Assembly: GCA_050734155.1 (NCBI GenBank)
Contig: JBOHUD010000100.1
Span: 16,835 to 80,834, forward strand
Reading direction: 5' to 3'
DNA from: Candidatus Dormibacteria bacterium
Lineage (GTDB): Bacteria > Chloroflexota > Dormibacteria > Aeolococcales > Aeolococcaceae
Length of the DNA: 64,000 nt
The translations under genes and the position numbers were made by a program. This document shows positions 1,498 to 59,472 of this stretch, piece after piece. The stretch's first letter is position 1. Each line of letters begins with the position of its first letter. The notes under the pieces were generated by a model. It was not told the origin of the DNA, did no database searches, and was given only the letters and a program-made list of their open reading frames with translations.

Positions 1498-1552
1498 CAT
1501 CGGTAAAAGTCAACCGCCAGGCCGGGCCTGACATTGCCGGGAGAGACCCGCG

Positions 1553-6463: not shown

Positions 6464-8091
6464 CAGGGGCACCCGCCGCGATCGTCGTGCCAGGCCGTGG
6501 CCAGACCGCTCCTGGTGTAGATCACCTGTCCCAGGGCGCCGTAGACGCACGTCCACCCCGGCGTGTGCTGCAGCAGGGTGGGAAGAGCGCCGCCGCGAGC
6601 CTGCCAGACCGTCTGCACGTGTTCGGCGTCTAGGATCGACAGTGCGTCGGGGCGTGCGGCCACGGCGTCGAGATACTCCTGGAAGATCCGCGGGCCGATG
6701 GTGTACACGTCGCCCCAGATGAAGACCGGGTGGTACGTGCACGGTCGCGGCGCTCCGCGCACCATCTCGAACAGCAGCCACCCGGCGCTGCCGTAGGGCT
6801 CGAGCACGTTGGAGGCGGGGGTCGCGCACACGGCGTCCGCGACCGCGACAGGGTAGGCCGCGCCCCTGTCGTCGTTGAGCGGATCAGCGATGCGCTGGGC
6901 GATCAGCACGCCGCTGACCGCCGTGACCGCGGCCAGCACCAGCGCGCAGAAGGGCATCGCCAGCGCCGAGGCGCGGCGCCGCAGCAGACCGATCTCCGTG
7001 GCCCACGCGTCCAGCCCGTCGACCAGCAGCGGTGCGGTCAGCACCACCAGGAGCGACAGGTTGCGCACCGCGTACAGGGTCAGGACCAGCCCCGCCGCGG
7101 CCAGGAGGACGTCGGCCAGTGGCACCCGCCGAGCCCGCGAGCCTGCCAGCACCAAAAGGGCGACCAGGATGGCCAGCGGGAGGAAGGTGGGGTCGTGGAA
7201 GCTCGGCGAGCGCCATTCGTCGAGGTTGGCCTGGGCGACCGGGTTGGCGAGCAGCCCGCCCGCGTACAGCAGCACCGAGTAGCCGTTGGGGTTCAGGCCG
7301 ATCGACGCCACCGATGCCGCCAGGACCAGCGCCAGGGACCGTGTGCGCGGCGGCCGCGGTGACCGCGCCGAACCCGCGCGGCGTTCGATGACCTCCGCCA
7401 CGGTGACCACCAGGAAGAGGCCGAGCCCGACGCTGAACCCACCGTGCAGGTTGCTCCACACGCAGAACAGCGGCACGCACCACCAGATCACCCGGCCGCC
7501 GGCGCGGCGATGGCGATCGAGGATGAGGAGCAGCAGTGCGCTGAAGGTGAAGGTGAACATCTGCGAGCGCGGCCCGAAGGTGGAGACGGCCACCGCGAGC
7601 GCCAGCGCGCCCACCGCCGCCAGCACCGCCGGCGACCGCGTGTAGGCGCGCGCCCGGTGCAGGGCGATCCCCAGCCCCAGCACCGTGACCACGGCCATGA
7701 GGCAGATCACAGCCCCCATGCCGAGGTGCAGGAGCAGCGCGTAGATGACCTCGCTGCCCCACTCCTGGGTGATGAACGGATGCCCGGTCGCGGTGAAGGT
7801 GAAGGGATCCACGCGGGGGAAGCTGCCGTCCAGGATGCGGTCGCCGACCAGGACGTGCCACCAGAAGTCGGGATCGAACTGCGCCTGCACGGTGAAGCTC
7901 ACCCCCAGCACCGCGACGCAGAGAAGTGCGAGCACGCCCGGCCGGCGCAAGAACGGGAGCCACTCGCAGGCCCTCCGGAACGCGGAGCCGGGGGGTGCCG
8001 GCGCCGAGCCGAGCGCGCCGGACGGCGTCGCTCCGTCCCCGCGGTTGGGGGCGGTGGGCGGTGCGACTGCACTCGTACGGGTCAGGGCCAT
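6463..8091 (-). CDS. large polytopic membrane protein, possible GT-C-type glycosyltransferase
   Basis: At least 10 hydrophobic segments follow MALTRTSAVAPP..., with a loop FWWHVLVGDRILDGSFPRVDPFTFTATGHPFITQEWGSEVIY and a soluble C-terminal domain of about 130 aa. Start set at the ATG at 8091. The function is only a guess from architecture. Confidence 0.55.
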   Translation of the reverse strand: MALTRTSAVAPPTAPNRGDGATPSGALGSAPAPPGSAFRRACEWLPFLRRPGVLALLCVAVLGVSFTVQAQFDPDFWWHVLVGDRILDGSFPRVDPFTFTATGHPFITQEWGSEVIYALLLHLGMGAVICLMAVVTVLGLGIALHRARAYTRSPAVLAAVGALALAVAVSTFGPRSQMFTFTFSALLLLILDRHRRAGGRVIWWCVPLFCVWSNLHGGFSVGLGLFLVVTVAEVIERRAGSARSPRPPRTRSLALVLAASVASIGLNPNGYSVLLYAGGLLANPVAQANLDEWRSPSFHDPTFLPLAILVALLVLAGSRARRVPLADVLLAAAGLVLTLYAVRNLSLLVVLTAPLLVDGLDAWATEIGLLRRRASALAMPFCALVLAAVTAVSGVLIAQRIADPLNDDRGAAYPVAVADAVCATPASNVLEPYGSAGWLLFEMVRGAPRPCTYHPVFIWGDVYTIGPRIFQEYLDAVAARPDALSILDAEHVQTVWQARGGALPTLLQHTPGWTCVYGALGQVIYTRSGLATAWHDDRGGCP

Positions 8092-14150: not shown

Positions 14151-15392
14151 TCAGCTGTTGATGCTCACACTTGCCGTCATCCCGGGCAGCGCCTGTTTGG
14201 GTTTGGCGGCGAGGTGGAAGACGACGTCGTACTCCACCTGGCTCGAGCCCTGCACGGCCTGGGGGATGATCTGAGCCAGGGTGACGGTGGCGCCGGTGTC
14301 GGGCAGCGCGTTGAAGGTGGCCGTCGCCGCCTGCCCGACATGCAGCCGCGAGACGTCGGACTCGGCCACCTGGGCGAGCACCACCCAATTCCCATCGGCT
14401 GCCAGCCGGATGACCGGGGACAGCTGGTTGCCCTGCGTCGGCGGCACCGGCGCCGTCGGCGCGAACAGCTGCAATGGTGAGGAGTTGGTCACCAGCGACT
14501 GCGGTCCGGCGTACTTCTGCACTCCGGAGTCGCCGACGATCTCGCCGACGGAGCCGGCCACCTCGCTGATCACTCCCGACACCGGTGCCCTCAGGACCAT
14601 GCTGTCGAGTGCCTGCTGGTCGATGGCGACCTGGGCCTGGGCTGTGGCCACGTTGGCCTGCGCCGCGGCGAGCTGGGCGCCCTGGTTCGCAGGCTGCGCC
14701 GCGGTGACAGGACTGCCCTGGGCCATGGCCAGGTCGAGCTGATAGAGGCTGACCTGGCGCTGGGATTGGTCGGCTGAGGCTCGAGCTGCGGCAAGTGCGT
14801 GCTGGTAGTCGGCGGTGCGCTGCGCGATCGCCTGGCGATCCTGGGCCACCTGGCGCGAGTTGGAGATGCATTCGGTCTGCTGAGGGCCTCCCGAGCAGAG
14901 CGATGCGGACGCCTGCTGGTCGCCGCCCAGGGTTGTCTGGGCGTCGCGGATCGATTGCTGTGCCTGGACGATGCTGAGGTTGTTGACGGACGCCATGTCC
15001 GCCGCCGCCTGCTGCGCGCCGGCCAGCTGCGCCTGGATGGCCTGCACGGTGAAGCCGAGCGCATTGGTCTGGGTGCCGCCCGCCTCCACGTACTGAAGGT
15101 TGGCCTGGGCTGCGGCCAGCTCGGCGCGGGCCCCGTCCAGCTGCAGCTGGGCTGCCGCTGCGTCCTGGGCGGCCAGGACCTGGCCGGCCACGACATGCTG
15201 ACCGACGCTGACACTGATCTGCTCGAGCGCGCCGCGATCCTGGAAGCTCAGGGCCAGCTGTTCTGCCGGCTGGAGCACGGCGGCGAAGGTTCGACTGCCG
15301 GTGAAGTAGGCGGCATGGAGGGTGAAGGCGAGGGCGCCCAATGGGAGAAGGAGCAAGCCTGTGGCTGTGCCGAACTGCCGTCCATTGAGCAT
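14151..15392 (-). CDS. HlyD/membrane-fusion-protein (periplasmic adaptor) family protein
   Basis: Start at MLNGRQFGTATGLLLLPLGALAF (TM anchor). Then LSFQDRGALEQISVSVGQHVVAGQVLAAQD (lipoyl half), a long Ala/Gln coiled coil, LRAPVSGVISEV (second lipoyl half) and a beta-barrel tail ...ALPGMTASVSI. No transporter partner gene is adjacent. Confidence 0.75.
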   Translation of the reverse strand: MLNGRQFGTATGLLLLPLGALAFTLHAAYFTGSRTFAAVLQPAEQLALSFQDRGALEQISVSVGQHVVAGQVLAAQDAAAAQLQLDGARAELAAAQANLQYVEAGGTQTNALGFTVQAIQAQLAGAQQAAADMASVNNLSIVQAQQSIRDAQTTLGGDQQASASLCSGGPQQTECISNSRQVAQDRQAIAQRTADYQHALAAARASADQSQRQVSLYQLDLAMAQGSPVTAAQPANQGAQLAAAQANVATAQAQVAIDQQALDSMVLRAPVSGVISEVAGSVGEIVGDSGVQKYAGPQSLVTNSSPLQLFAPTAPVPPTQGNQLSPVIRLAADGNWVVLAQVAESDVSRLHVGQAATATFNALPDTGATVTLAQIIPQAVQGSSQVEYDVVFHLAAKPKQALPGMTASVSINS

Positions 15393-15419
15393 CGCGTCAC
15401 CCCTCCGCAGCGGATCGTG

Positions 15420-15449
15420 AGTGTAGGAATGCTCAATCCCGACAGTCAA
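15420..15449 (-). promoter_or_regulatory. sigma70-like promoter for the adaptor gene (TTGACT-18 nt-TACACT on the minus strand)
   Basis: The minus strand reads TTGACTgtcgggattgagcattccTACACT about 25 nt upstream of a GGAGGGG Shine-Dalgarno and the ATG at 15392. The -35 hexamer overlaps the stop codon of the upstream response-regulator gene. Confidence 0.4.
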
Positions 15450-16150
15450 GAATTGTCCCGGTCCGCCTCCCTGATCGCATCCAGCGACCACGCCGCCTTC
15501 TGAGCGGCGGCCACGGCGGCGATCTGGGAGCTCACCCCCAGCTTGGACAGCACCCCGCGAACCTGGCTGCGCACCGTGGCCTCGGACACGAACCACCTGG
15601 CGGCGATGGTCTGCACCGAAAGGCCGTCGCACAGGGCGGCGAGAACCTTGGACTCGCGCGGCGTCAGGGCGCGGAAGGGTGCAAGCCGCTCGCGCACGCG
15701 CCGGCGATGGTCGCGCAGCTCACCGAGCAACCGCGACCGCTGCTGCTGGCTGATGATGGCGCGCAGGTTGGCGGCGTCGAGCACCACCCGGAGCAGCTCC
15801 TCGAACGGTCGCGTCTTGTCGACGATGCCGTGGGCGCCGAGCTCGATGCACCTGGCGTTCTGCATCTGGTTGGAGGAGCCGGTGACGATGATGACCCGGG
15901 CTCCGGTCGCGACCAGGGGCGCCACCAGGTCCTCGCCGCGGCCAAAGCCTCCCAGGTGGAGGTCGAGCAGGACGACATCGGCAGGGTCGGCGCGCAGCTG
16001 GCCGAGCACGCTCCGAGGGTTGGTGAGAACCGGCACGTCCACCTCGAGGCCCTCCGCGGTGAGCGCCGCACGGAGGGTTTGCGCCAGCAACTCGTGGTCG
16101 TCCACGATCGCGACCCGGGGCCGCACGGGCGGTACCTGAGGGTCGGTCAC
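15446..16150 (-). CDS. response regulator, NarL/LuxR family (REC + LuxR HTH)
   Basis: RVAIVDDHELLAQTL...VVLLDLHLG...IIVTGS...K (REC Asp/Thr/Lys pattern) and C-terminal LTPRESKVLAALCDGLSVQTIAARWFVSEATVRSQVRGVLSKLGV. Its start overlaps the kinase gene by 4 nt. Confidence 0.88.
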   Translation of the reverse strand: MTDPQVPPVRPRVAIVDDHELLAQTLRAALTAEGLEVDVPVLTNPRSVLGQLRADPADVVLLDLHLGGFGRGEDLVAPLVATGARVIIVTGSSNQMQNARCIELGAHGIVDKTRPFEELLRVVLDAANLRAIISQQQRSRLLGELRDHRRRVRERLAPFRALTPRESKVLAALCDGLSVQTIAARWFVSEATVRSQVRGVLSKLGVSSQIAAVAAAQKAAWSLDAIREADRDNS

Positions 16151-17778
16151 ACGGAGGTGTCAACCCCAGCCGTGGCCGTCGGCGCCGCAGCGCGTTCGGG
16201 TTCCCGCCCCCAGTCCCGGGGAGCTGCGCCCGCCACGACGCCGATCTCGATTCCCCTGTTGCCGTCGCCTCGGGCCATTCCGGCGACGCTCTCCGCCGCC
16301 GGCAGCTCGACCACGAAGCAGGCGCCCCCTCCGCGGCTGTCGCGCACCTCGATCCTCCCGCCCATCTCGGCCAGCAGGCGAGCGCAGACGAACAGGCCGA
16401 GGCCACTGCCCCTGGTGGCCGCGCTGGTGCGACCGCGCTGGCCGCGGAGAAAGATCTGCGCCCGAGCCTCATGCGGGACCCCGGGGCCTTGATCCTCGAC
16501 GGTGAGCACGACCCTGCCGGCCTCGAGGTGGCCGGTGACGATGATCGGGCTGCCCGGCGCGTGGCGGCGAGCGTTGACCAGAAGGTTGTGCACCACCGTG
16601 GCCACCTCGGAGGGCCGGCCCCGGGCCACCAGGTCGCCGACCAGGAAGGAGATGTCGGCGCCGTGGCTGCGCTCGGCGGCGATGAGCGGCGCCAGGACCT
16701 CCACCGGCCGGAAGTCGGTGGTTTCGCCAGTTTCCGCGGCCGCGGCGGGCGCCCGGATCAGGTCCTCGAGCCGCGACAGCTCACTGGTCAGCGCCGTCCC
16801 CAGCGTCTCGCGGGTGATCTCATCCAGGTCATCCTGGTGGCGGCGCAGGGTGAGGTCGGCGGCGCGGATGGTGGCCAGTGAGGAGCGCACATCGTGGAGG
16901 CGCTCCTCCAACCTGGCGGCCTCGGCCTCGCGGGCGCCGAGGCTGGCCCTGAGGTCGGTGGCGACACGGCGGTTGGCCTGGGTGTGGGCCCGCAGCACCC
17001 AGCGCGCCTCCGCCTCGCTGCCCAGCAGGGCGCCGGCAGCGGCCAGGACCAGCACGCAGGCCTCGACGAAGACGACGAGGTTGATCTGCTGTGCCGACGC
17101 CAGCGCGAGGGCGGCGACCACCACCTTGAGGAGGGCGTAGACGGCCAGCCACTGCGGAGTGGCCTGACGCGACCTCGCATACCAGGCAGCGGTGAGAGCG
17201 AGCAGCCCGCCCCAGACGACCAGGGACACCGAGAGGGCGGCGGTCGGATCGCTGTCCCAGGCGAGCACTCCGATCGCCACGGCCAGGAGCACCGAGCCGG
17301 CGGCGACGAGGCCGCTCTGGAGCAGGCTGCCCGCCGGCGCTGCCGGCGCCTCGCTCTGAGCGCGCCAGACCAGCACCGCGACAACCGCGACGACTGCAGA
17401 CGTCACCATCGCGCCCCAGGCGGGGCTCAGGGAGATGTCGAAGAGCGGCTGGGGCTGGCGCAGCGGCACAGTGATGCCGAGCAGCAGCGCGGCAGACCCG
17501 GCATAGGCGGCCGAGCGGTCATGGACCAGCCGCCAGCGGAAGAGCGCGAACAGCCCGGCGCCGGCGAGCAGGAGCAGCTGAAGGATCTGCAGGACGCCGA
17601 GATCCTGCTCCCGCCCCAGTCCGAGCAGTGGGATCAACAGCACCCAGGCCAGGGAAGCAAAGATGCCGAGAAGAGCCAGGTGGATGAGCCGGCGAGCCGC
17701 CAGGGGAGGTGCCGACCACATCGCCGGGCGTCCACGTTCGATGTCCGCTGCTCCCTGGCCGCGGAGTGACGCCAACAT
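16147..17778 (-). CDS. multi-TM sensor histidine kinase (no evident extracytoplasmic domain)
   Basis: About 8 hydrophobic helices, then an H-box LEERLHDVRSSLATIRAA and N, G1 and G2 boxes (LLVNARRHAP, VEDQGPGV, GSGLGLFVCARL). The start is uncertain: ATG at 17778 or 17721. The track ORF begins at 17901. Confidence 0.8.
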   Translation of the reverse strand: MLASLRGQGAADIERGRPAMWSAPPLAARRLIHLALLGIFASLAWVLLIPLLGLGREQDLGVLQILQLLLLAGAGLFALFRWRLVHDRSAAYAGSAALLLGITVPLRQPQPLFDISLSPAWGAMVTSAVVAVVAVLVWRAQSEAPAAPAGSLLQSGLVAAGSVLLAVAIGVLAWDSDPTAALSVSLVVWGGLLALTAAWYARSRQATPQWLAVYALLKVVVAALALASAQQINLVVFVEACVLVLAAAGALLGSEAEARWVLRAHTQANRRVATDLRASLGAREAEAARLEERLHDVRSSLATIRAADLTLRRHQDDLDEITRETLGTALTSELSRLEDLIRAPAAAAETGETTDFRPVEVLAPLIAAERSHGADISFLVGDLVARGRPSEVATVVHNLLVNARRHAPGSPIIVTGHLEAGRVVLTVEDQGPGVPHEARAQIFLRGQRGRTSAATRGSGLGLFVCARLLAEMGGRIEVRDSRGGGACFVVELPAAESVAGMARGDGNRGIEIGVVAGAAPRDWGREPERAAAPTATAGVDTSV

Positions 17779-17891
17779 CGCCTTCCTTCCCCTTCCCGAG
17801 TCAAACGCCCCGCGTCTGAGCGGAGTATAGCCTGCTCCGGGATCGACCGTCCGGCGGGGTCGGTTGCCCCTCCGCCCCTCGACCAACTCAG

Positions 17892-17977
17892 ATTTCATCA
17901 ATTCTGATGATGTGCCGGCCCCCAGTCGCTGCGCATGATCGCTTCAATCGGAACGGTGCCGCGGTGCACCGCTCACC
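17892..17977 (+). promoter_or_regulatory. conserved non-coding element, copy A (in the divergent spacer between the two two-component operons)
   Basis: My hand alignment of 17892-17977 with 23700-23785 gives 67/86 identical positions with no gaps. Two near-perfect blocks are present (ATTTCAnCnATTnTGATGATGTG and TGCGCATGATCGCTnCAATCnGAACGG), plus a 6-bp hairpin. Confidence 0.55.
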
Positions 17978-18071
17978 GCGAGGGCGAGCAGGGGATGGGG
18001 GTTCTGCACAGCTGCGAGACGGCCTGTCGCAGGCTGGCCCGCGCACCCGCAAAGACGCGGAAGCGAAGGCG

Positions 18072-18842
18072 GTGAGCGCGTTGTGGAGCTTGCGAGGCGC
18101 GCAGGGGACCATCCGGGAGTCCAGTGGGGGCACCGGCGGGATCCCGGCAGAGGCGGCGGCGGCGGTCTCGGTGCTGGTTGTCGAGGACCACGAGATGCTG
18201 GCGGAGACGCTGGTGCTCGGTCTCTTTGCCAGGGGGTTCGACTGCACCGTGGCCCAGCTCACCGGCCCCGAGACGGTGCTGACCCAGGCGGCGCGGTTGC
18301 GTCCCGCCGTGGTGCTGCTGGACCTGCAGCTGGGCGACACCGACGGCCTGGATCTGATCCCGGGGCTGCGGGCGCTCGGCGCCAGGATCCTGGTGGTCAC
18401 GGGATGCACCCATGAGCCCCGGGTGGCGGCGGCGCTGGCGCTGGGCGCCAGCGGGTGGGTGAGCAAGTCCGAGCCCTTTGAGCGCCTCCTCGAGGCCGCC
18501 GAATCCGTGGCACGCAACCGGCCGGTGCAGGACCGCGCGCGACACGAGGAGATGATCGAGCTGGGGGCGGATTGGCTGGAGACCACCCGCGAGGCGAGGC
18601 GGCGCATCGCGCAGCTCACCGCCCGCGAACGTGAGGTGCTCTGGGCGCTGTCCGAGGGGGAGAGCGCCGCGGACATCGCCAGGGCGCTGGTGGTGTCGCT
18701 GGGCACGGTGCGGTGCCACATCCAGGCGATCCTCGGCAAGCTCGACGTGTCCAGCCAGCTGGCGGCGGTTGCCTACGCCAGCTCGCTGCTCACCTCGGAT
18801 GGGCCTCCACGTCGCGATGGGCGGCTCGGAGGGCAGCGATGA
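18072..18842 (+). CDS. response regulator, NarL/LuxR family
   Basis: VLVVEDHEMLAETLVLGL...VVLLDLQLGDTDG...ILVVTG (REC) and LTAREREVLWALSEGESAADIARALVVSLGTVRCHIQAILGKLDV (LuxR HTH). The start is uncertain (GTG at 18072 or 18171). The track start at 17907 is rejected because it lies inside the conserved non-coding element. Confidence 0.82.
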   Translation: MSALWSLRGAQGTIRESSGGTGGIPAEAAAAVSVLVVEDHEMLAETLVLGLFARGFDCTVAQLTGPETVLTQAARLRPAVVLLDLQLGDTDGLDLIPGLRALGARILVVTGCTHEPRVAAALALGASGWVSKSEPFERLLEAAESVARNRPVQDRARHEEMIELGADWLETTREARRRIAQLTAREREVLWALSEGESAADIARALVVSLGTVRCHIQAILGKLDVSSQLAAVAYASSLLTSDGPPRRDGRLGGQR

Positions 18843-20440
18843 CGGTGCTGAGCGCCGTCAGGCTGCTCACGCGCTCCACCCCGGACTCGTATGCCGGCCC
18901 CGACCGGCGCACGATCATCGCCAAGCTCGCCAGCGAGAACACCCCCAGGGTGGTGGGGGGGATGCTGGCGGGGGTGGTCGTGCTGCCGCTGGTCGGGGTG
19001 GGCCTGTTCAGCATCGCACCCGGCCTGTCCGTGGCCGCCGCCTCCGTCGGCGCTGCGGATGCGGCCCTGGTGGCATTCCTGGCCACGGCTGTGATCCTTC
19101 TGCTTCGCTGGCGCCTGGTTGGTGCCGCGGCCAGCGCCCTGCTGTCGGTGGCGATGCTGTTGACGGGGCTGCTGTTGGTGCCGGCGACCCACTTCGGCGC
19201 AGCCGCGCCCAGCTACGCTGTCGCGCTGCACCTGACCTCGGTGGCGTTCATCCTCGCTGCCTGCATCGGCGCCGTCGCCCTCCCCGTGGTGGTCGCGGGT
19301 CTCCGCCCGACCCTGCTCATCGTGGCCGCGCTCGGTGGTGCGATCGTCGCGGCGGTGCCGCTGGCGCTCCTTCCATTTGCCGGGGTGCGGGTCGGGGGCG
19401 ACGGCATCACCGCGGCCTCGGCGATTGAGGGCCTCGGCTGTGCTGCGGTCGCGATCGCGCTGCTCAACGGTGGCGTTCGCAGCGGACGGGTGCTCCTCGC
19501 CGGGGCAGGTGTGGTGCTGCTGGCCATCGCGGGCGCCCACGCCACACCTCTGTCGTCGACCGGCGCGTGGAGCGCCCTGCCCTCACTGCTCCTGCTGGTC
19601 GGGGCTGTGGAGTTCCTGCTGCTCGCCGGCACCGACCTGAAGTCCACCCTCGATGTCGTGGTGCACCACGATGTGCGTGGCCGCCGCCGCTGGGTGGCCG
19701 CCGAGACCGAGCTGGATCGGGTTCGCCGGATCCACCGCGGCCGCAGTCACGACCTCACCAGCATGCTCGCCGCCATGGACGGGACGCTGCTCGTCCTCTC
19801 CCTCGAGCGCGGCACGCTCGACGCCGAGGAGCGCAGCCGGCTCATCGCTGCGGTTCGCGACCAGATCCAGCAGCTGCGCACCCTGCTGGCCGGGGACGGC
19901 GGCGCGGCGCGGCTCTATGACCTCGCCGACCTGCTCGGCGGCATCGTCGCCCTGCATGCGAACGGAGCTCAACGCGTGCACGCCGAGGTCGACCCGTCGC
20001 TGCCGATGCACGGCCACCCCGATCGGGTGATGCTGATCGTCAACAACCTTCTGGACAACACCACCGCCCATGCCCCGGGCGCCAGGGTCACCCTGCGCGC
20101 CGCCCGGGCGGCCAGCGCCGACGGCGACATGGTGGAGATCGCGGTCTCCGACGACGGCCCCGGGCTCGCAGACGCCGAGCTGGAGAGTGCCTTCGAGCCC
20201 GGCTGGCGGGGCAGCGCGGCCACCGCGGTGGCGGGGAGCGGGCTGGGGCTGGCGCAGTGCCGCGAGCTGGCCGAAGCCGAGGGAGGCCAGATAACCCTGG
20301 GCACCGCTGATCCCGCCGCCAGCCCAGGTCATCGGGGCTTGACGGCTCGGATCCTCATCCCGGTGGGGCCGGCCCGCCCGGCTCACGCGAAGATCGGCAA
20401 TTTTGCCGATGCCCTGCTCTCCCGGGGCAACTACAACTGA
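18839..20440 (+). CDS. multi-TM sensor histidine kinase, paralogue of 16147..17778
   Basis: The ATG at 18839 overlaps the regulator's TGA (ATGA). About 9 hydrophobic helices, then an H-box RIHRGRSHDLTSMLAAM, N box LLDNTTAHAP, G1 SDDGPGL and G2 GSGLGLAQCREL. Confidence 0.82.
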   Translation: MTVLSAVRLLTRSTPDSYAGPDRRTIIAKLASENTPRVVGGMLAGVVVLPLVGVGLFSIAPGLSVAAASVGAADAALVAFLATAVILLLRWRLVGAAASALLSVAMLLTGLLLVPATHFGAAAPSYAVALHLTSVAFILAACIGAVALPVVVAGLRPTLLIVAALGGAIVAAVPLALLPFAGVRVGGDGITAASAIEGLGCAAVAIALLNGGVRSGRVLLAGAGVVLLAIAGAHATPLSSTGAWSALPSLLLLVGAVEFLLLAGTDLKSTLDVVVHHDVRGRRRWVAAETELDRVRRIHRGRSHDLTSMLAAMDGTLLVLSLERGTLDAEERSRLIAAVRDQIQQLRTLLAGDGGAARLYDLADLLGGIVALHANGAQRVHAEVDPSLPMHGHPDRVMLIVNNLLDNTTAHAPGARVTLRAARAASADGDMVEIAVSDDGPGLADAELESAFEPGWRGSAATAVAGSGLGLAQCRELAEAEGGQITLGTADPAASPGHRGLTARILIPVGPARPAHAKIGNFADALLSRGNYN

Positions 20441-20539
20441 TCCATGTGCCGGTGCGGATGATTCCGTCCGGCTGAGGATATTTCCGCCCACCGGTCGGCA
20501 GGAAACCGAGACGGGGGCGGGCAAGAGAGGAGGTTCTCT

Positions 20540-21004
20540 ATGAGAATCGGGATTCGCAAGCTGCTGCTGCTCGGAGGCAGTGCGGCAGTACTATCGACGG
20601 CCGGGTTTGCCTACATGGCAACCAACACCGTCACTCCGAGCAATGCTGGTGTGGGTTCCGGCGTCGTGTCAGGGTACAGCGTTGATGTCCTCTCATACGG
20701 CAACGATCCCGCCGGCTGCTACGATGGGTCCAATGCATACTGCACGGGCAGCCAAGATCTGGCGACCGCCACATCGGTGACCGTCAAGTTGACCACGCAA
20801 AGCCCCGGCCAGAATGTGGCCCCGACTACGGTGTATGCGTACGCCATCGGCCCCGGTACCCAGATGCATGTGGGACACAGCAACCAGTGCACACCGGCCA
20901 ACACCTGGAACACCAGCACTGGCACGGGCGAGTTCACGTGCGTGTTCAACCCCGGGCTGGCGAAGGACCTGCTGGACCACGTCGCCATCGACGCTTCCCA
21001 GTAG
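20540..21004 (+). CDS. small secreted Cys-containing protein with SipW-like signal region (fibre-locus protein 1)
   Basis: Strong RBS AGAGAGGAGG 7 nt upstream. MRIGIRKLLLLGGSAAVLSTAGFAYMATNTVTPSN resembles the GGT-x-A-x-F-x-D SipW-dependent signal class. The mature part is beta-rich and Thr/Gly/Asn-rich, with 4 Cys. Confidence 0.7.
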   Translation: MRIGIRKLLLLGGSAAVLSTAGFAYMATNTVTPSNAGVGSGVVSGYSVDVLSYGNDPAGCYDGSNAYCTGSQDLATATSVTVKLTTQSPGQNVAPTTVYAYAIGPGTQMHVGHSNQCTPANTWNTSTGTGEFTCVFNPGLAKDLLDHVAIDASQ

Positions 21005-21050
21005 GCGGATCAGTCGGATAGGATTTGTACGCGAGTTGCCGGGCACGAGC

Positions 21051-21626
21051 ATGAGCACCTACCACGCTGATCTCGTGTCCCGGCGCTCGCGCGTCTCCCC
21101 CCGTCCGACGCGCCTCTTCTCGCTCGCCGCTCTGCGGCCGCGCCACTCCCGTATCCTCGCCGCGGTTGCAAGTGGCATCCTAGCCCTGGGCGCGTGGTCG
21201 CTCCTGGCGCCGCCCCAGCTTGGCGGTTCGACCTCGTTCGTCATAACGACGGGGATCAGCATGCTGCCGAACTTTCACGCCGGGGACGCCGTCCTGCTAC
21301 GCGCAGAGCAGCGCTACAGCGTCGGTGAGGTCGCCGGGTATCACAACGGTAATCTGAACGTCATCGTCATGCACCGCATCGTCGCCGTGCGCGGCGATCG
21401 CTATGTCTTCAAAGGCGACAACAACAACTGGGTGGACGGCTACGACCCGACGGCGGACCAGATCGTCGGCGTTGAGTGGGCGCACATGCCGAACCTCGGC
21501 AGTGTCCTCCTCTCGCTACGCACCCCCGCGATCGCCGCCTTCATCCTTGGAGCGCTCTGGCTTTTCATGTTCTGGCCGCGGTCGAGGTCGCGACGCCAGC
21601 GTAGGAGGCGACGGCATGCCCGCTGA
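21051..21626 (+). CDS. sipW: signal peptidase I, archaeal/ER (S26B, SipW) type, copy 1
   Basis: An N-terminal TM, then ITTGISMLPNFHAGDAVLL (catalytic Ser in the SM-x-P box), VIVMHRIVAV (catalytic His box), FKGDNNNWVD and a C-terminal TM. This is the SipW-like architecture, not the LepB type. Confidence 0.82.
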   Translation: MSTYHADLVSRRSRVSPRPTRLFSLAALRPRHSRILAAVASGILALGAWSLLAPPQLGGSTSFVITTGISMLPNFHAGDAVLLRAEQRYSVGEVAGYHNGNLNVIVMHRIVAVRGDRYVFKGDNNNWVDGYDPTADQIVGVEWAHMPNLGSVLLSLRTPAIAAFILGALWLFMFWPRSRSRRQRRRRRHAR

Positions 21627-22797
21627 TCAACAATTGGATCGACGGAGCTCTGGCAGAGCGCCCGGTGGCAGGCTCGACGTCGTCGTCGTCTGCGCGGTGT
21701 TGGCGATCTGCGCGGCCATCCTGGCGGGGGTCGCCTGGAGCCGCCCGACCACCGCGACCTCGAAGCTGACGTACACGCAGTCAGGGCAACTGGCATACAG
21801 TGCACCAGCGAGTCCGAAGTCTGTGTACGGGAGCGCCGGGGTGAGCACCGGCGAGCCGGTCTACGGCTCGGTGGTGCAGGCTCTCGCCCTCACCTATTCC
21901 TACCAACTCAGGGCCGATCTTCCAGCTGCTGTGAGCGGCACCGAGCAGCTGGTCGCCACCGTCAGCAACGGACAGGGACTGTCGCGCAGCATCCCGCTCC
22001 AGGCGACCGTGACGCCTTTCACCGGCCCGGTTTTCGCGGCCACGGCCAGACTGGACATGGCCGTGCTACGAGGCGTGGCGGCAGCCTTCGATCAGGTCGG
22101 GGGCAATGCCGGCACGGGCATGTACTCGGTCGCGATCGCCCCGTCCGTGAACATCAGCGGTCGGATCGGGTCCGCACGAGTGAATGCGTCGTTCGACGCG
22201 CCCATCGACTTCACCTACACCGCGGGCGACCTCCTCCCCGGAAGGGCGGGCGCCGCGCCGGGCTCTCAGGCGCAACCGAGTCTGGCCGCCAGCTCGAACG
22301 GCTCGGTGACTGTGCCCGCGGGCCAGGTCGCCACGCTCCTCTTCGGGCTCTCGGTGAGTGAAGTCCGAATCGCCTCCCTGGTGCTACTGCTCGTCGCGGT
22401 CCTGCTCGGGGGGATCGCCGGCTGGCCGGTGCTGCGTCAGGCCACCTCCGATGATGAGCCCGCGCGCATCGCTGCCCGGTACGGTTCTCTGATCGTCGAA
22501 GCCGAGGCGGTGGCTGCGCATTCGGGGGTGGTTGTGGTGGAGCTGGACTCGTTCGACGATCTGCTCCGGGTCGCGCGCCGCCTCGAGTGTCCGATCCTGC
22601 ACTGGGCGGAGGCGGGCGACATCTATGCCGTCGTCGACAGCGGCACGCTGTACCGCTCGCGGGATCGGCTACTCCCTGAGCCTGCGGTGCGCAGCCATCC
22701 CGCCAACCATTCCGGCGGGAACGGGAGTCAGGCCGGTCGGGACCACCTCTCGCGAATGTATCGTGAGGTACCGCGCCGCACGGCCAGGCGTCGGTGA
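21616..22797 (+). CDS. bitopic membrane protein (TM - about 300-aa extracytoplasmic beta-rich domain - TM - about 110-aa cytoplasmic domain), DUF5305-like
   Basis: ATG at 21616 follows GTAGGAGG and overlaps the peptidase gene by 11 nt. TM1 is VVVVCAVLAICAAILAGVAW and TM2 is IASLVLLLVAVLLGGIAGWPVL. The cytoplasmic tail is ...IAARYGSLIVEAEAV...VVELDSFDDLLRVARRLECPILH. The DUF5305 assignment is from memory of SipW-neighbourhood families and is unverified. Confidence 0.65.
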   Translation: MPADQQLDRRSSGRAPGGRLDVVVVCAVLAICAAILAGVAWSRPTTATSKLTYTQSGQLAYSAPASPKSVYGSAGVSTGEPVYGSVVQALALTYSYQLRADLPAAVSGTEQLVATVSNGQGLSRSIPLQATVTPFTGPVFAATARLDMAVLRGVAAAFDQVGGNAGTGMYSVAIAPSVNISGRIGSARVNASFDAPIDFTYTAGDLLPGRAGAAPGSQAQPSLAASSNGSVTVPAGQVATLLFGLSVSEVRIASLVLLLVAVLLGGIAGWPVLRQATSDDEPARIAARYGSLIVEAEAVAAHSGVVVVELDSFDDLLRVARRLECPILHWAEAGDIYAVVDSGTLYRSRDRLLPEPAVRSHPANHSGGNGSQAGRDHLSRMYREVPRRTARRR

Positions 22798-23534
22798 TGG
22801 CTGAAGGGGGTCGAGCGAGCATGGAGCACACTGCTGAGCCTCAGCAGAGCCGTCGACGACCTGGCGTGCTCGCCTGGGTCGCACTGGCCACCGGCGCGGC
22901 ACTGGTCGCGGGGATGGCGCTCACCTCGATCCTGGGGGCCACGCCCGGGTATGCCGCGTCCTCGTGCGACTCCTCAGGATCACCGGTCACGGTACATTAC
23001 GAGGCGGCTCCCGGAAGCTATCCCGGAGTCACCTTGGGCGTCGCGGTCTCCAGCGTCGACCTGTCGAACTTCCCAGCCGCGTGCAATGGCACGGCCGTCA
23101 AGCTCGAGGTGCGCGGCAACAGTGCCGGCGATCCGTCGATTGCACCGGCGGCCGATCGGTTGCTGAGCACCGCCGATTCGACTGTCAACCCCTGCACCCA
23201 GAAGCCGCTCCCCGCCCCGGGAGTGGTGACCAACGCCAGCATCTCTCTCTCGCTCTGTGCGTCAGGCGGGCCGGCCGGCTATTTCAGCGTGCACGACATC
23301 ACGTTGCTGAGCCTGTTCCTTGCGCAGGCGAGTGGCGGCGTCGCCGTGACCACCACCCCGAGCCCGAGCCCCAGCGCCAGTCCCACCGGCGGGGTGGCTG
23401 GAGTAAGCGTTGTGACGCCATCCACCGGGGGCGCCCTGCCGGTCACCACCGACCTGCTCGGGGTTGGCGTCGCGCTGATGCTCGTCGGGGGATTTGCGGT
23501 CGCGGCCGCTTGGTACCGGCGCCGCGCGGAGTAG
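22794..23534 (+). CDS. secreted surface protein with Thr/Pro/Ser linker and C-terminal sorting-signal-like anchor (LPVTT-TM-RRRAE)
   Basis: GTGATG overlap with the upstream stop. Signal peptide ...LVAGMALTSILGATPGYAAS, then TTTPSPSPSASPTGG. It ends GGALPVTTDLLGVGVALMLVGGFAVAAAWYRRRAE. Confidence 0.7.
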   Translation: MMAEGGRASMEHTAEPQQSRRRPGVLAWVALATGAALVAGMALTSILGATPGYAASSCDSSGSPVTVHYEAAPGSYPGVTLGVAVSSVDLSNFPAACNGTAVKLEVRGNSAGDPSIAPAADRLLSTADSTVNPCTQKPLPAPGVVTNASISLSLCASGGPAGYFSVHDITLLSLFLAQASGGVAVTTTPSPSPSASPTGGVAGVSVVTPSTGGALPVTTDLLGVGVALMLVGGFAVAAAWYRRRAE

Positions 23535-23699
23535 CGCCCAGGCTGCAGGGTCTGCTGTGGCGCATGGTGCCCGGCAGCAAGTGTCCTCGTCGCGACGGAT
23601 GCATCCGCCCGACTGACACGGGCAGGCGTAGTCTGCTGATGTGCGATCCACCACCCGCGGTGTTGCGGTGTTGAGGACTTTGGGAGCAAAGCTCTTCGT

Positions 23700-23785
23700 A
23701 TTTCACCGATTTTGATGATGTGACTGTCACGAGAAGGTGCGCATGATCGCTGCAATCAGAACGGCGCCGTGACGCGCCGCTCATC
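23700..23785 (+). promoter_or_regulatory. conserved non-coding element, copy B (leader/promoter region of the tasA-like gene)
   Basis: 78% identical, ungapped, to 17892-17977. It ends 52 nt upstream of the ATG at 23838. The ATG ATG that opens the track ORF in copy A is followed here by TGA, so the element is not protein-coding in that frame. Confidence 0.55.
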
Positions 23786-23837
23786 AGGAAGTGCAGCCGC
23801 AAGCGCGGCCATTGTCATGTAGGGGAGGAGACACTCG

Positions 23838-24566
23838 ATGAATCACAAGATCCTGAAGGCCAGCCTGGCCGGGGGCGCCTTCATCGCCCTGGTCGCCGGC
23901 GGCACCACCTTCGCGGCCTTTTCCGACTTCGGCAGCATCAACAACAACACCGTCGGTGCGGGCTTCCTCAAGCTCGACCTGAACGCCGGTACCGGCTCGG
24001 TGCCGCTCGACTTCGGCAACCTGGCGCCCAACAACATCCACTCGCAGCGCACGATCTGGGTGGCGAGTAACGACGGCAACTCCGTTCCGCCGGCGAATCT
24101 CACCCTCACCTTCCAGCACCTGAAGGAGATCCCTGGCCCGTGCAACACCAGCATGGGCAAGGCAGTCGCCGAACAGAGCATCAACAACGGCTGCGCCGAT
24201 CCAACCACCGGTAACCCGACGGTTGGCGTGCTCTCCAAGGTGCTGAACTTTCAGGTCGCGTACTACCCATCGATCACCGATCCACAGACCTGCCAGTCGT
24301 ATCTCTCGGGCCACTACCCTGCGTACAACTCGATCTTCGCGGATGCGCCTGGCGACATGACCACCAGTGCCGCCGGCGCCGGTACCCCGCACGTGCTGTA
24401 CCAGCAGGGCAGCACCACGGCACCGCTGGTTCTCCTGCCGGGCCAGGGCGTCTGCATCGGCATCGACACGTACTGGGGCAGCAATCAGGGCTTGGTCCCC
24501 GACAACGCGGCCCAGGGTGACTCGCTCACCTTCGATGCCCGTTTCGACCTGACCCAGGCTCCCTGA
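23838..24566 (+). CDS. tasA: TasA/camelysin-family fibre subunit (SipW-dependent signal peptide)
   Basis: RBS GGGGAGGAG. IALVAGGTTFAAFSDFGSINNNTVGAGFLKLDL...FGNLAPNN... and C-terminal AQGDSLTFDARFDLTQ parallel B. subtilis TasA (LALVGGGTWAAFNDIKS..ATFASGTLDLS..NLSNLKPGD..., ...QGNSIKLQFSFEATQ, recalled from memory). Confidence 0.85.
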   Translation: MNHKILKASLAGGAFIALVAGGTTFAAFSDFGSINNNTVGAGFLKLDLNAGTGSVPLDFGNLAPNNIHSQRTIWVASNDGNSVPPANLTLTFQHLKEIPGPCNTSMGKAVAEQSINNGCADPTTGNPTVGVLSKVLNFQVAYYPSITDPQTCQSYLSGHYPAYNSIFADAPGDMTTSAAGAGTPHVLYQQGSTTAPLVLLPGQGVCIGIDTYWGSNQGLVPDNAAQGDSLTFDARFDLTQAP

Positions 24567-24614: not shown

Positions 24615-24656
24615 GCCTTGCGATTCCACCGCATAGAGAAGAGGACGAGTGAGCAG

Positions 24657-25223
24657 ATGACCCGGCGTCTCGTCAAGGCGGCGACAACTGTCGTGATGAG
24701 CCTCCTGCTCGCGGCCATCATCGCCTCGCTGGTGCTGCTCACCGTCGTCCCCAGGGTGATGAACGGCGCCGCGCTCAACGTCCTCACCGGCAGCATGCGG
24801 CCGGGCATCCCCCCGGGATCGATCGTCATCGACAGGGCGGTGGACACCCGCACCCTGCAGGTCGGCGACATCGTCACCTACCAGGTGGCACCCGGCCGGG
24901 CGGAGTACATCACCCACCGGATCGTCGCCATCAACACCAACACCACCCCGGTGACCTTCACCACCAAGGGTGATGCCAACCGCGGCGCCGACGTGAATCC
25001 GGTCCCGGCCACCGCCATCCGCGGCGAGGTGGCGTTCCACCTGCCCTTCCTGGGCGCCATTCGCGACAGCATCCAGTCGGCCGGCGCGCGATCCACCGCC
25101 TTCGTCGCGGTCCTGGTCGGGCTCGGCCTGTATGCCATCTTCCAGCTGCTCAGCGCCCTGCGTGACCGGCGCCGGGCCACTCGCACCGGCAGCGGCATCG
25201 CGCCCGCGGGGGACGGCGCCTGA
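24657..25223 (+). CDS. sipW: signal peptidase I, archaeal/ER (S26B, SipW) type, copy 2
   Basis: MTRRLVKAATTVVMSLLLAAIIASLVLL (TM), NVLTGSMRPGIPPGSIVI (Ser box), EYITHRIVAI (His box), TKGDANRGAD and a C-terminal TM FVAVLVGLGLYAIFQLL. I prefer the ATG at 24657 to the track TTG at 24618, which abuts the hairpin. Confidence 0.82.
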   Translation: MTRRLVKAATTVVMSLLLAAIIASLVLLTVVPRVMNGAALNVLTGSMRPGIPPGSIVIDRAVDTRTLQVGDIVTYQVAPGRAEYITHRIVAINTNTTPVTFTTKGDANRGADVNPVPATAIRGEVAFHLPFLGAIRDSIQSAGARSTAFVAVLVGLGLYAIFQLLSALRDRRRATRTGSGIAPAGDGA

Positions 25224-25927
25224 TGGCCTCCCAGCCCCGCAGAGCCGTGCTCACCCTGGCAACGGTCGTCTTCGCCGCCGCCGTGGTGGCGGTGCCGATC
25301 GCCCGGACCCATGCGGCGCTCTCGGACTTCGCCGTACTGCACTCGTCCGCGAGCGCTGCGGTGTGGGGACCGAAGGACAACGACTCGCAGGACAACGACT
25401 CGCAGGACAACGATGCGCAAGACAACGACGAGAACAGCGAGAGCGATCACCAGGGCATCCAGAACCAGCAGAGCACGATCCACAGCCCCCAGGCCGAGAC
25501 CGCAGCGCCGTTGGTGCCGGTCGGCACCACCGCCGGAGGCCCTGGCGGGTCCGGCGACTGCCTCACGGTGCCCACCGGGCTCGCCTCCAGCGCCGCCGCG
25601 CCGCTGCAGAGCTGGCCGCTGACGCTGCTGGTGATGTATGCCGGCACCAACCCGCTGGCCACCAGCGGCTTCACCGGCTCCAACGGTGTGAAGGCCACCC
25701 CGCCGGCGCTCAGCGTCGATGGCACGGTGACCCCCGGCGCCCACCCCACCAGCCTCACCAGCAGCGCTGACCCGGCCCACAGCAACGGGCTGACGCTCTC
25801 GTACACGGTTCCCACCGCGCTCCACGACGGCAGGCTGCACGTGCTGACCATCACGGCCTTCGAGGACGACCACAGCACCCCGCAGGCCTGCACCGCCACC
25901 TTCTACGTGTCCTCGGTGGGGCCGTGA
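25223..25927 (+). CDS. secreted protein with SipW-type signal (..THAALSDFA..) and acidic DND(S/A)Q repeat (fibre-locus accessory protein)
   Basis: TGATG overlap with sipW copy 2. VVFAAAVVAVPIARTHAALSDFAVL mirrors the AAFSD motif of the tasA-like gene. It is followed by DNDSQDNDSQDNDAQDNDENSESD and a Thr/Ser/Pro/Gly-rich beta-type domain. Confidence 0.7.
   Translation: MASQPRRAVLTLATVVFAAAVVAVPIARTHAALSDFAVLHSSASAAVWGPKDNDSQDNDSQDNDAQDNDENSESDHQGIQNQQSTIHSPQAETAAPLVPVGTTAGGPGGSGDCLTVPTGLASSAAAPLQSWPLTLLVMYAGTNPLATSGFTGSNGVKATPPALSVDGTVTPGAHPTSLTSSADPAHSNGLTLSYTVPTALHDGRLHVLTITAFEDDHSTPQACTATFYVSSVGP
25376..25435 (+). repeat. four tandem 15-nt units (GACAACGACTCGCAG x2 perfect, then two diverged units) inside the CDS
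   Basis: Read directly: gacaacgactcgcag gacaacgactcgcag gacaacgatgcgcaa gacaacgacgagaac, encoding DNDSQ DNDSQ DNDAQ DNDEN. Confidence 0.9.
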
Positions 25928-26661
25928 CCCGCTCGTCCCGCAGGCTGCTCGCCGCCGTCGCCGGGCTGTTCCTGGTGGTCGGCCTCTCCGCCGGCCTGGC
26001 GACGCGGGTGAACGCCGTCGCCAGCAGCAGCGCTCTGCTCCTCCATGTGCCCGGCGATCCGGCGGGCTGGACGGCAGCCCCGACCCACCCCGTCCTCAAC
26101 TTCTCCCGCCTGGCCCCGGGCGGCAGCGTATCGGGTGAGGTGGATGTGCAGAACACCAGCACCCAGGCGGCTTCGCTGCAACTGGGGGCGCTGGGCGTGC
26201 ACAGCGACAAGAACTGCGTCGCCGGAGGGCCGGCCGGTGTCGGTCCATGCGGCGCCGGCAATGGGTCACTCGACCGGCTCCTGGTCTTCACCGTACGGCT
26301 CGCCTCGGCATCGACACCGCTGTGGACGGGCTCCATCCTCGACCTCGAGAAGGGAGTGCCGATCACCTCCTCCATGGCCGGGCCATCGGCGCTGGCGCTG
26401 GTCCTCGGAGCGTCGCTCCCGACCAATGTCGGCAACGTTGCCGAGGAGGACTCGCTCTCCTTCGGATTGCGCATGACCCTGACCGAGGCCGGCGGCGCCA
26501 CCGCGACGGGTGTGCTGGGCATCACCACGCCGCCGGTGCCCTTCACCGGCGCGCTGCTGCTCCCGTCGATCCTCCTCGCCGTGGGGGTGATGTCCGCGGG
26601 GGCGCTGCTGATCCTGTTCGCAACCGAGCGCCGCGGCCGGCGCCAGACGGCGAGCCTCTGA
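25924..26661 (+). CDS. TasA-like secreted protein with C-terminal sorting-signal-like anchor (VPFTG-TM-RRGRR)
   Basis: GTGA overlap with the upstream gene. Signal ...LSAGLATRVNAVAS. NFSRLAPGGSVSGEVDVQNTS and EEDSLSFGLRMTLTEA echo the TasA N- and C-terminal motifs. It ends TTPPVPFTGALLLPSILLAVGVMSAGALLILFATERRGRRQTASL. Confidence 0.72.
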   Translation: MTRSSRRLLAAVAGLFLVVGLSAGLATRVNAVASSSALLLHVPGDPAGWTAAPTHPVLNFSRLAPGGSVSGEVDVQNTSTQAASLQLGALGVHSDKNCVAGGPAGVGPCGAGNGSLDRLLVFTVRLASASTPLWTGSILDLEKGVPITSSMAGPSALALVLGASLPTNVGNVAEEDSLSFGLRMTLTEAGGATATGVLGITTPPVPFTGALLLPSILLAVGVMSAGALLILFATERRGRRQTASL

Positions 26662-59069: not shown

Positions 59070-59472
59070 CGTGCAAGCCGGCCTGTAAGCCGGGTTCTGT
59101 CCCCGCCGCTCCGTTGACGGCCCTCGGGCCGCCGCTCCCCGGCGGCGGGGGACGGCCATCCATCTACGACGCCGGTTGCCCGGCGCCTGCAGCGGCCCTA
59201 CCCGGGACATGGGGCGAGCAACCCCTGGACGGCGAACCGTCCGTCCCTGTTCGGCCTTGCTCCGGGCGGGGTTTACCTGGCCGGCCGGTCACCCGACCGC
59301 CGGTGGGCTCTTGCCCCACCATTTCACCGTTGCCCCGGAATCGCCGCGGCTGTGTCCTTTCTGTGGCACTCTCCTTCGGGTTGCCCCGACTGGGCGTTAC
59401 CCAGCGCCCTGCTCTGTGGAGCCCGGACTTTCCTCGGACGACTGGCGCCCGCGGCCGTCCGGCCGGCTTGCC
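59070..59472 (-). ncRNA. rnpB: RNase P RNA, bacterial type A
   Basis: The minus strand reads GCAAGCCGGCCGGACGGCCGCGGGCGCCAGUCGUCCGAGGAAAGUCCGGGCUCCACAGAGCAGGGCGCUGGGUAACGCCCAGUCGGGGCAACCCGAAGGAGAGUGCCACAGAAA...GGUGAAAUGGUGGGGCAAGAGCCCACC...ACAGAACCCGGCUUACAGGCCGGCUUGC. Both universally conserved P4 strands are present (GAGGAAAGUCCGGGC and ACAGAACCCGGCUUA). The 5' GCAAGCCGGCC pairs with the 3' GGCCGGCUUGC as P1. The ends are good to about +/-10 nt. Confidence 0.9.

Follow-up and report, generated by a model that had tools for sequence, protein, structure and literature searches.

The window analysed here, a stretch of 64,000 nucleotides (nt) from contig JBOHUD010000100.1 of a Candidatus Dormibacteria bacterium (GenBank assembly GCA_050734155.1), carries a gene cluster for a TasA-like fibre subunit, SipW-type signal peptidases and other exported proteins, accompanied by the genes of two two-component systems, RR1-HK1 and RR2-HK2, each consisting of a response regulator (RR) and a histidine kinase (HK). 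Both in Bacillus and in archaea, fibres of the TasA superfamily are known as components of the matrix and of pili. The subject of this analysis is an 86-nt element that is present twice in the cluster, once before the RR2-HK2 operon (copy A) and once before the TasA-like gene (copy B), and for which we propose the role of a promoter module with a predicted response-regulator site. Copy A lies in the divergent spacer between the start of HK1 on the minus strand (17778) and that of RR2 (18072), and copy B in the spacer from 23534 to 23838; as an earlier note on this DNA had described, both spacers are long (about 300 nt), both copies are oriented like the + strand genes that follow them, and the domain and signal-peptide matches agree with its naming of those genes as a regulator/kinase operon and a TasA-like gene. 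The coordinates of the features are collected in Table 1.

Table 1. Features of the element and its surroundings; positions are those of the window unless a locus (L) number is given. aa, amino acids; PWM, position weight matrix.
Feature	Position	Strand	Remarks
Copy A, 86-nt module	17892..17977	+	upstream of RR2-HK2 operon; 67/86 identical to copy B
Copy A 7-2-7 repeat TCATCAA-TT-CTGATGA	17895..17910	+	22-mer 17893-17914; PWM 36.0; proposed response-regulator dimer site
Copy A -10-like CATGAT	17934..17939	+	offset +41 from motif start; predicted transcript start near 17946
Copy A inverted repeat GAACGGTGC-N6-GCACCGCTC	17951..17974	+	core stem 17954-17959 / 17966-17971; predicted first ~30 nt of transcript
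Copy B, 86-nt module	23700..23785	+	upstream of TasA-like gene
Copy B 7-2-7 repeat TCACCGA-TT-TTGATGA	23703..23718	+	22-mer 23701-23722; PWM 36.1
Copy B -10-like CATGAT	23742..23747	+	predicted transcript start near 23754
Copy B inverted repeat GAACGGCGC-N6-GCGCCGCTC	23759..23782	+	core stem 23762-23767 / 23774-23779
Third, weaker motif site GATCGGCAATTTTGCCGATGCC (TCGGCAA-TT-TTGCCGA)	20392..20413	+	PWM 18.4; inside 3' end of HK2
A/T-rich hexamer ACAACT	20433..20438	+	-10 offset of third site; overlaps HK2 stop codon
RR1, NarL/FixJ-family response regulator	15446..16150	-	Pfam Response_reg and GerE
HK1, membrane histidine kinase	16147..17778	-	HATPase_c; start ATG 17778, ribosome-binding site GGAAGG; co-oriented with RR1
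RR2, paralogous NarL-family response regulator	18072..18842	+	first gene after copy A
HK2, histidine kinase	18839..20440	+	ATG overlaps RR2 stop codon
154-aa secreted protein	20540-21004	+	
SipW-like signal peptidase	21051-21626	+	
DUF5305 protein	21616-22797	+	
246-aa exported protein	22794-23534	+	
TasA-like fibre subunit, 242 aa	23838-24566	+	SipW-type signal peptide (NCBIfam)
SipW signal peptidase	24618-25223	+	signal peptidase I model (NCBIfam)
Two further exported proteins	25223-25927, 25924-26661	+	
TGTAAC(A/G)AG ... GTTAC motif of relatives	L110 326-400; L111 ~7890-7950; L113 ~400-470; L114 7850-7920; L118 ~1520-1580		upstream of RR2 orthologues

An ungapped comparison of the two copies gives the 67 identities in 86 positions that had been reported earlier, exact on recount, and a repeat finder independently returned the pair as 17892-17975 and 23700-23783 (84 nt, 79%), the sole long two-copy family of such kind in the window. 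That the similarity goes beyond what unrelated promoters would show is borne out by random pairs of 86-mers from the window (200,000), which share 25.2 ± 4.8 identities with a maximum of 48. Full copies number just two within the 64 kb, and each of the invariant blocks occurs exactly twice with 3 mismatches tolerated, where shuffles expect 0.00. The identity between copies A and B is distributed in blocks, namely 20/23 in block 1, 7/15 in the 15-nt spacer between blocks 1 and 2, 25/27 in block 2 (CGCTNCAATCNGAACGG) and 15/21 in block 3, with the flanking 20-mers at background level (5-8/20). Since the spacer and the flanks diverged while blocks 2 and 3 did not, the latter are under selection in this lineage.

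Coding explanations of the repeat were considered and set aside. A short open reading frame (ORF) or leader peptide beginning at ATGATG... would read MMCRPP... in copy A and MM-stop in copy B, and one beginning at ATGATCGC... would give a 9-aa peptide in copy B and a long unrelated ORF in copy A, neither of them conserved. A further ORF begins within copy A, at ATG 17907, and shares the reading frame of RR2; the N-terminal extension that it would add is left uncovered by RR2 homologues, which match 78-97% (mostly 80-90%) of the query starting at 18081; the window's clustered sequence for RR2, of 256 aa, fits the start at 18072.

In a comparison set of about 40 related loci from Actinomycetota and Dormibacterota, the part of the element that recurs widely is block 1, a directional motif of the form tTCNNCAA-TT-TTGNNGATG. 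A 22-column PWM built from 17 sites led to 38 non-redundant sites, whose consensus, tTCaTCAAtTTTGAcGATGyG, describes an inverted repeat of imperfect 7-2-7 form (TCNNCAA-TT-TTGNNGA), after which comes a TG that hardly varies. The two inverted 7-bp arms and their 2-bp gap are found in copy A, in copy B and in a third site of the window, and the middle two positions of each arm vary by lineage, being CC/GG in Nocardioides-like loci and GG/CC in the window's third site. The motif stands upstream of TasA-like genes in 30+ loci, and it precedes TasA-like or other SipW-signal genes in nearly every related locus (L001, L006, L082-L097, L103-L105, L107); it always points at the downstream gene, and the product of that gene nearly always has a SipW-type signal peptide (...GGTTFAAFSDFG..., ...GAYFTDS...). 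Where the main TasA-like gene follows, the distance from the end of the 22-mer to the start codon is usually 100-115 nt; in copy B it is 115 nt, as in L001 and L006. Some loci (L084-L087, L091, L093, L096) have two back-to-back sites, each facing its own secreted-protein/SipW operon. The matrix is specific: 407 kb of unrelated control DNA yielded no match scoring at least 24 and one scoring at least 18, and scores above 14 occur in the window only at the three cluster sites. One further strong site was noted in L103 (5834-5855, +; score 32.3, CACCAT at the -10 offset), where it lies just past the regulator gene and points into the antisense of a cation-efflux gene.

How much of the element is kept depends on the distance of the relative. 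In L001-L005, at 72% protein identity, the nearest orthologous spacer upstream of the TasA-like gene keeps all three blocks, but at that distance the entire spacer is conserved. A stretch upstream of copy B at window positions 23637-23670 (CTGATGTGCGATCCACCA...GTGTTGCGGT), which is shared with the L001 equivalent and has no counterpart at copy A, is for this reason uninformative. In more distant loci, both metagenome contigs at 55-60% protein identity and 21 genome-representative loci that include Jatrophihabitantaceae, Planosporangium and Nocardioides, only block 1 is kept; a search by nhmmer with the whole 100-nt element matched these loci in block 1 alone, and the element is therefore composite. 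The earlier idea of a regulon signature thus survives in a shortened form: the motif is shared across loci, but the signature amounts to some 22 nt plus a hexamer at fixed spacing and not to the whole 86 nt, the remainder being lineage-specific.

The searches that assembled these loci also returned matches of another kind. A genome scan with the single TasA-like protein found nothing, and its repetition with an alignment succeeded. A pattern scan of metagenomes with TGATGATGTG-N13-17-GCGCATGATCG gave 72 matches with no true homologue among them and also missed L002, L003 and L005, the collection being non-exhaustive. About 60 of the 72 (within L010-L081) belong to one coding family, in which the reverse strand of the pattern is a very common coding motif that reads ...PIMR-x5-HIIN... 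and which we take to be short-chain dehydrogenases; the remaining matches are unrelated, and none of the 72 carries the CAATCNGAACGG half of block 2. The gap is 15 nt in this family and 16 nt in the window, where it breaks the PIMR/HIIN reading frame; the two copies are therefore unrelated to that coding motif, and an origin from a dehydrogenase gene fragment on the minus strand was rejected.

The second conserved part of the signature is a -10-like hexamer, cANNNT, at a fixed distance after the motif, which is CATGAT in both copies and falls within block 2. In the columns outside the matrix, 25 of the 38 sites have A at +42 and 30 have T at +46, where the background for either base is 0.18; the two are combined in 22 of the 38 (binomial 2e-23), and 41 is the single enriched offset for NANNNT, the runner-up reaching 6/38. 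On sequence grounds, this A2/T6 pattern is the signature of a -10 hexamer. The hexamer lies 21 nt after GATG, and in all sites 31.5 nt separate its first base from the centre of the inverted repeat on the upstream side, which would place the repeat near -43.5 if transcription starts at the usual 7 nt after the hexamer. A TTGACA-like -35 element 16-18 bp upstream of the -10 is absent from the sites, alignment columns 20-25 carry little information apart from the conserved TG at columns 18-19, and a consensus scan finds no promoter in 17600-24000. The proposal of a shared promoter or operator is accordingly upheld as a predicted promoter, with block 1 and the -10 conserved at fixed spacing and chance ruled out. 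On the HK1 side of the divergent spacer there is a good -10-like TATACT (17826-17831, -), with about 40 nt between it and the HK1 start codon. Relative to this divergent promoter the copy A palindrome would be near -83, and it could influence that promoter too.

The third site had been missed when the element was described as present in two copies, which holds for full copies only. It ends 126 nt before the start codon of the gene for the 154-aa secreted protein, and the hexamer at its -10 offset is a weak match, with T6 present and A2 only after a 1-nt shift. The site is kept in the orthologous operons of L109, L111, L113 and L115, in which the kinase tail across it reads KIGNFADA, RIPNFADA, RSSILPMRL and RSSILQIPVG, that is, in different frames; the constraint therefore acts on the DNA and not on the protein. 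The leader of the 154-aa gene (window 20440-20540, L109 ~3100-3230 and the equivalents in L113 and L115) is itself conserved, as GTGCTGGGTCGAGCC ... GCTGAGRAC..GAACGCTCACCGG, and faintly resembles block 3 (AGAACGG...CGCTCACCG), which may be chance.

The candidate regulators come from the neighbourhood of the motif. An all-against-all ORF comparison of the 15 loci with enough flank found as conserved families the TasA-like proteins, the SipW peptidases, another exported protein and a pair of HK and NarL-type regulator. In 14 of the 15 loci this pair is found no more than a few kb away from the cluster, and it is the sole conserved non-structural gene set, with no sigma factor or other DNA-binding protein conserved among the loci compared. 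In the window, the orthologue of the regulator that accompanies TasA clusters in Actinomycetota is RR1 (phmmer 1e-36 to 1e-54, the exception being a frame-disrupted regulator copy in L084 at 1.5e-23), and homologues of HK1 adjoin that regulator in relatives; RR2 is a more distant paralogue (phmmer 1e-35). Both are full-length relatives of NarL, DevR and VraR, and DevR, NarL and VraR are likewise the relatives of RR1 in the PDB. In L084-L087 and L091 the kinase and regulator stand at the far end of a motif-driven operon, so feedback may be common. The tie between the fibre gene and the adjacent LuxR/NarL-type two-component systems that the earlier note had drawn thus gains from the presence of the motif before TasA-like genes in many genomes with a neighbouring pair, and on linkage and architecture we infer that the motif belongs to these regulators.

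Taking these observations together, we read the element as a promoter module, present twice, with a predicted NarL/FixJ-family response-regulator site acting in the activator mode, and assign to this reading a probability of roughly 0.6. The observations behind it are the repeat, the conservation and orientation of the motif, the fixed distance to the -10 and the linkage of the genes; the start site, the identity of the binding protein and the sign of regulation are what we infer. A phosphorylated dimer of RR1, RR2 or both would bind the 7-2-7 repeat and activate from just upstream of the -35 position, and, more speculatively, the A/T-rich centre (CAATTTTG) would suit a contact with the alpha C-terminal domain of RNA polymerase. 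The rest of block 2 and block 3 would supply the discriminator and the start site, followed by the first ~30 nt of the transcript with its small hairpin. Three such promoters would serve the locus: that of copy A would drive RR2-HK2 and might also serve the genes that come after, that of the internal site at 20392 would drive the gene for the 154-aa protein together with those for SipW and the DUF5305 protein, and that of copy B would drive the TasA-like subunit, SipW and accessory proteins. Copy A would thereby place one two-component system under the fibre-gene motif and give rise to positive autoregulation.

The nearest parallel known to us is the yeaR(-yoaG) promoter of E. coli, at which a NarL dimer activates from a single 7-2-7 site (TAACCAA-TA-AATGGTA) at -43.5, just upstream of the -35, with the alpha C-terminal domain bound in the minor groove between the monomers of the dimer (PMC10853779). 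The present element resembles it in the two inverted 7-bp half-sites around a 2-bp A/T-rich centre, in the placement near -43.5 if the start is as predicted, and in having a NarL/FixJ-family regulator with its kinase as candidate activator. It differs in its targets, which are fibre and signal peptidase genes and not nitrate-responsive ones, in its hosts (Dormibacterota and Actinomycetota), in the lack of a recognisable -35, and in the half-site, TC(A/C/G)(T/C/G)CAA, which does not match TACYYMT, the consensus heptamer of NarL; what is shared is therefore the architecture only, and the element does not belong to the NarL regulon. By this analogy the element would be of a known kind, a NarL-family 7-2-7 promoter with class II-like geometry. 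Its gene content has parallels as well: the tapA-sipW-tasA operon of B. subtilis has the same kind of genes, a TasA-superfamily subunit beside a SipW-type peptidase, but is governed by the repressors SinR and AbrB and has no adjacent two-component system, and neither the motif nor an orthologue of the regulator was found in the Bacillales loci L100 and L102. The archaeal TasA-like filament loci (bundling pili, Tat-fimbriae) appear to share the set of TasA-like subunit, SipW-like peptidase and DUF5305 protein, papers on both structures mentioning DUF5305 together with signal peptidase, and the fold matches 7ueg; the hosts here are bacterial. PhoPQ-type feedback is an example of a positively autoregulated two-component operon, to which the proposed regulator site before RR2-HK2 would correspond; unlike in that case, the autoregulatory promoter here looks like a recent copy of a target promoter, and the operons of six relatives are without it.

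Literature searches, seen as result lists only, gave no description of the motif or regulon, nor of the control of TasA-homologous loci in Actinomycetota or Dormibacterota. The architecture is a textbook one, and a specialist would find the result useful more than surprising: it supplies TCNNCAA-TT-TTGNNGATG, with cANNNT 21 nt further on, as a cis motif, names the adjacent NarL-type two-component system as candidate regulator, makes the regulon predictable in any genome of these groups, and offers an apparent case of regulatory rewiring, in which a fibre-gene promoter was copied before a regulator operon and replaced the ordinary promoter of the relatives.

Several points weigh against the promoter reading just given. 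The recognition helix of the regulators (SEATVRSQVR) is nearly the same for loci of the TCCCCAA- and the TCATCAA-type, with no co-variation of protein and site, and the half-site is unlike any NarL-family site known to us, so that the assignment of the motif to the neighbouring regulators is a proposal from gene linkage. The position at -43.5 depends on the assumed 7-nt gap, with the start taken from the hexamer, and the hexamer itself begins with C instead of T and is a poor match at the third site. The motif evidence is also partly circular, as the sites were selected by the matrix built from them; the -10 enrichment is unaffected by this.

Copy A itself is specific to this lineage. Upstream of the RR2-type regulator the motif is absent in six distinct relatives (L109/110, L111/112, L113, L114, L115-117, L118), and an ordinary sigma-70-like promoter stands there in L109/110, L111, L115, L118 and, less clearly, L113 (for example TTGACG-17-CACAAT, TTGACG-17-CATACT and TTGACA-18-TATCAT), with a TACACT-type -10 alone in L114. 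An element before the regulator operon, which had been presented as a feature of the regulon, is thus not general, and copy A is therefore most simply seen as a copy, apparently recent, of the fibre-gene promoter set before RR2-HK2. The gene order 154-aa/SipW-like/DUF5305/246-aa follows the RR2/HK2 orthologues in L109, L110, L113 and L115, and in L111 without the last gene. Copies A and B are direct repeats that bracket exactly the RR2-HK2-SipW-DUF5305 block, and the layout of L105, with RR-HK on the minus strand and the motif pointing at the TasA-like gene, equals that of the window minus the RR2 block; an insertion of this block with duplication of the promoter is therefore an attractive, if conjectural, history. 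The RR2 orthologues have a signature of their own, a repeated TGTAAC(A/G)AG ... GTTAC motif around the sigma-70-like promoter (Table 1), which the window is without.

The protein bound at the motif could also be a repressor, either the same response regulator or another protein, that blocks polymerase by binding next to the -35. The sequence evidence for this is equal to that for an activator, the palindrome adjoins the -35 position or extends into it, as the sites of repressors can do too, and the TasA operons of Bacillus are repressor-controlled; yet a constitutive promoter in need of repression would be expected to have a good core, whereas no site has a -35 hexamer at 17 ± 1 bp from the -10, as is typical of activator-dependent promoters, and the strictly fixed -10 spacing fits a contact between protein and polymerase, so that we regard repression as unlikely. 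Still less probable, in our judgement, is that a dedicated alternative sigma factor recognises the motif as its upstream element, the module being simply the promoter of that factor. The directionality of the motif, with the GATG side always proximal and at a fixed distance to the -10-like hexamer, would agree with this, as would the related folds of GerE-type domains and sigma region 4, and Pfam gave Sigma70_r4_2 matches on RR2; however, the 24 nt between TTGNNG and the hexamer exceed the spacing of a -35/-10 pair, an inverted repeat suits a dimer and not a sigma domain, and a sigma factor gene is missing from what the 15 compared loci conserve.

The shared 5' leader RNA that the earlier note had offered beside the promoter, that is, a riboswitch, an attenuator or a protein-binding leader common to both transcripts, finds some encouragement in blocks 2 and 3, which are better kept between the copies than the spacer, and in the ability of block 3 to form a hairpin of 6-9 bp. 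Within the core, CGGYGC-N6-GCRCCG, copy A has U-A at a position where copy B has C-G and the L001 type has U-G; a 5'-proximal RNA hairpin is hinted at by these three sequence types only. RNAalifold, however, finds no pair changed on both sides, Rfam gives the element no match at gathering score or at E <= 1, and fold z-scores against shuffles on the + strand are +0.39 and -0.29 for the two copies. When the 62 nt downstream of the -10 were folded for the 38 sites, they were slightly more stable than shuffles (mean z -0.5, p 0.02) but without strand asymmetry, and a general structured leader was rejected. Outside the closest relative, conservation is limited to sequence upstream of the -10, with mismatched arms in many loci, and the rest of block 2 and block 3 are absent at 55-60% protein identity; a leader RNA is hence very unlikely, and we treat blocks 2 and 3 as core-promoter and leader sequence whose extra function, if any, is uncertain. 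As for the copies being a neutral scar of the insertion of the 5.8-kb RR2 operon, or fragments of a mobile or dispersed repeat, and now without function, the bracketing direct repeats, the layout of L105 as the remainder without the block, and the relatives that carry the RR2 block elsewhere under a different promoter would all be in keeping with a scar. But the conservation is blockwise and not uniform, so that selection must have followed the duplication; in two phyla, both block 1 and the -10 are kept at the same position; and an insertion origin is compatible with the promoter model without replacing it. The generic dispersed repeat that had been named as the case against the element was likewise not seen: two full copies and one partial site, all in one cluster, are the only sites in the 64 kb, with no many-copy pattern there, and the sites of relatives are confined to TasA/SipW clusters. 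A functionless origin of either sort thus seems hardly credible. Less remote, though doubtful, is the proposal that the lineage-specific 3' half (TGCGCATGATCGCTNCAATCNGAACGG plus hairpin) forms a second layer of control, as an RR2 site or as a stabilising or regulatory hairpin at the 5' terminus, and/or that the copies are an insertion scar that created positive feedback by promoter capture; if so, a fibre promoter would have been parted from its gene in the ancestor by a whole second two-component/secretion operon, and a new feedback circuit would have arisen in one step.

The naming of the fibre gene and the remaining genes deserves a brief account. The TasA-like gene region is syntenic in L001. 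The signal-peptide models TIGR04088 and TIGR04089 match the TasA-like protein weakly, and for the peptidase TIGR02228 scores 95.5 bits. PDB sequences gave no match to a profile of the TasA-like family, and fold comparison was used instead: for the AlphaFold model of the 242-aa protein (predicted local distance difference test score, pLDDT, 73), the best PDB match was the TasA fibre of B. subtilis (8aur_A; E 7.8e-6, template-modelling score, TM, 0.42), with archaeal bundling pili and cannulae ranking lower, so that "TasA-like" is a fair label. The named TasA-like relatives are mostly from Actinomycetota, and the closest one and the RR2 orthologues are labelled as metagenome-assembled genomes of Dormibacterota. 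Directly downstream of RR1, an RND/HlyD-type membrane-fusion (periplasmic adaptor) gene (14151-15632, -; RND, resistance-nodulation-division) may be co-transcribed with HK1-RR1. Further along the window, at 59070-59470 on the minus strand, lies a full-length bacterial RNase P RNA of class A (240.8 bits), the window's sole Rfam match at gathering level.

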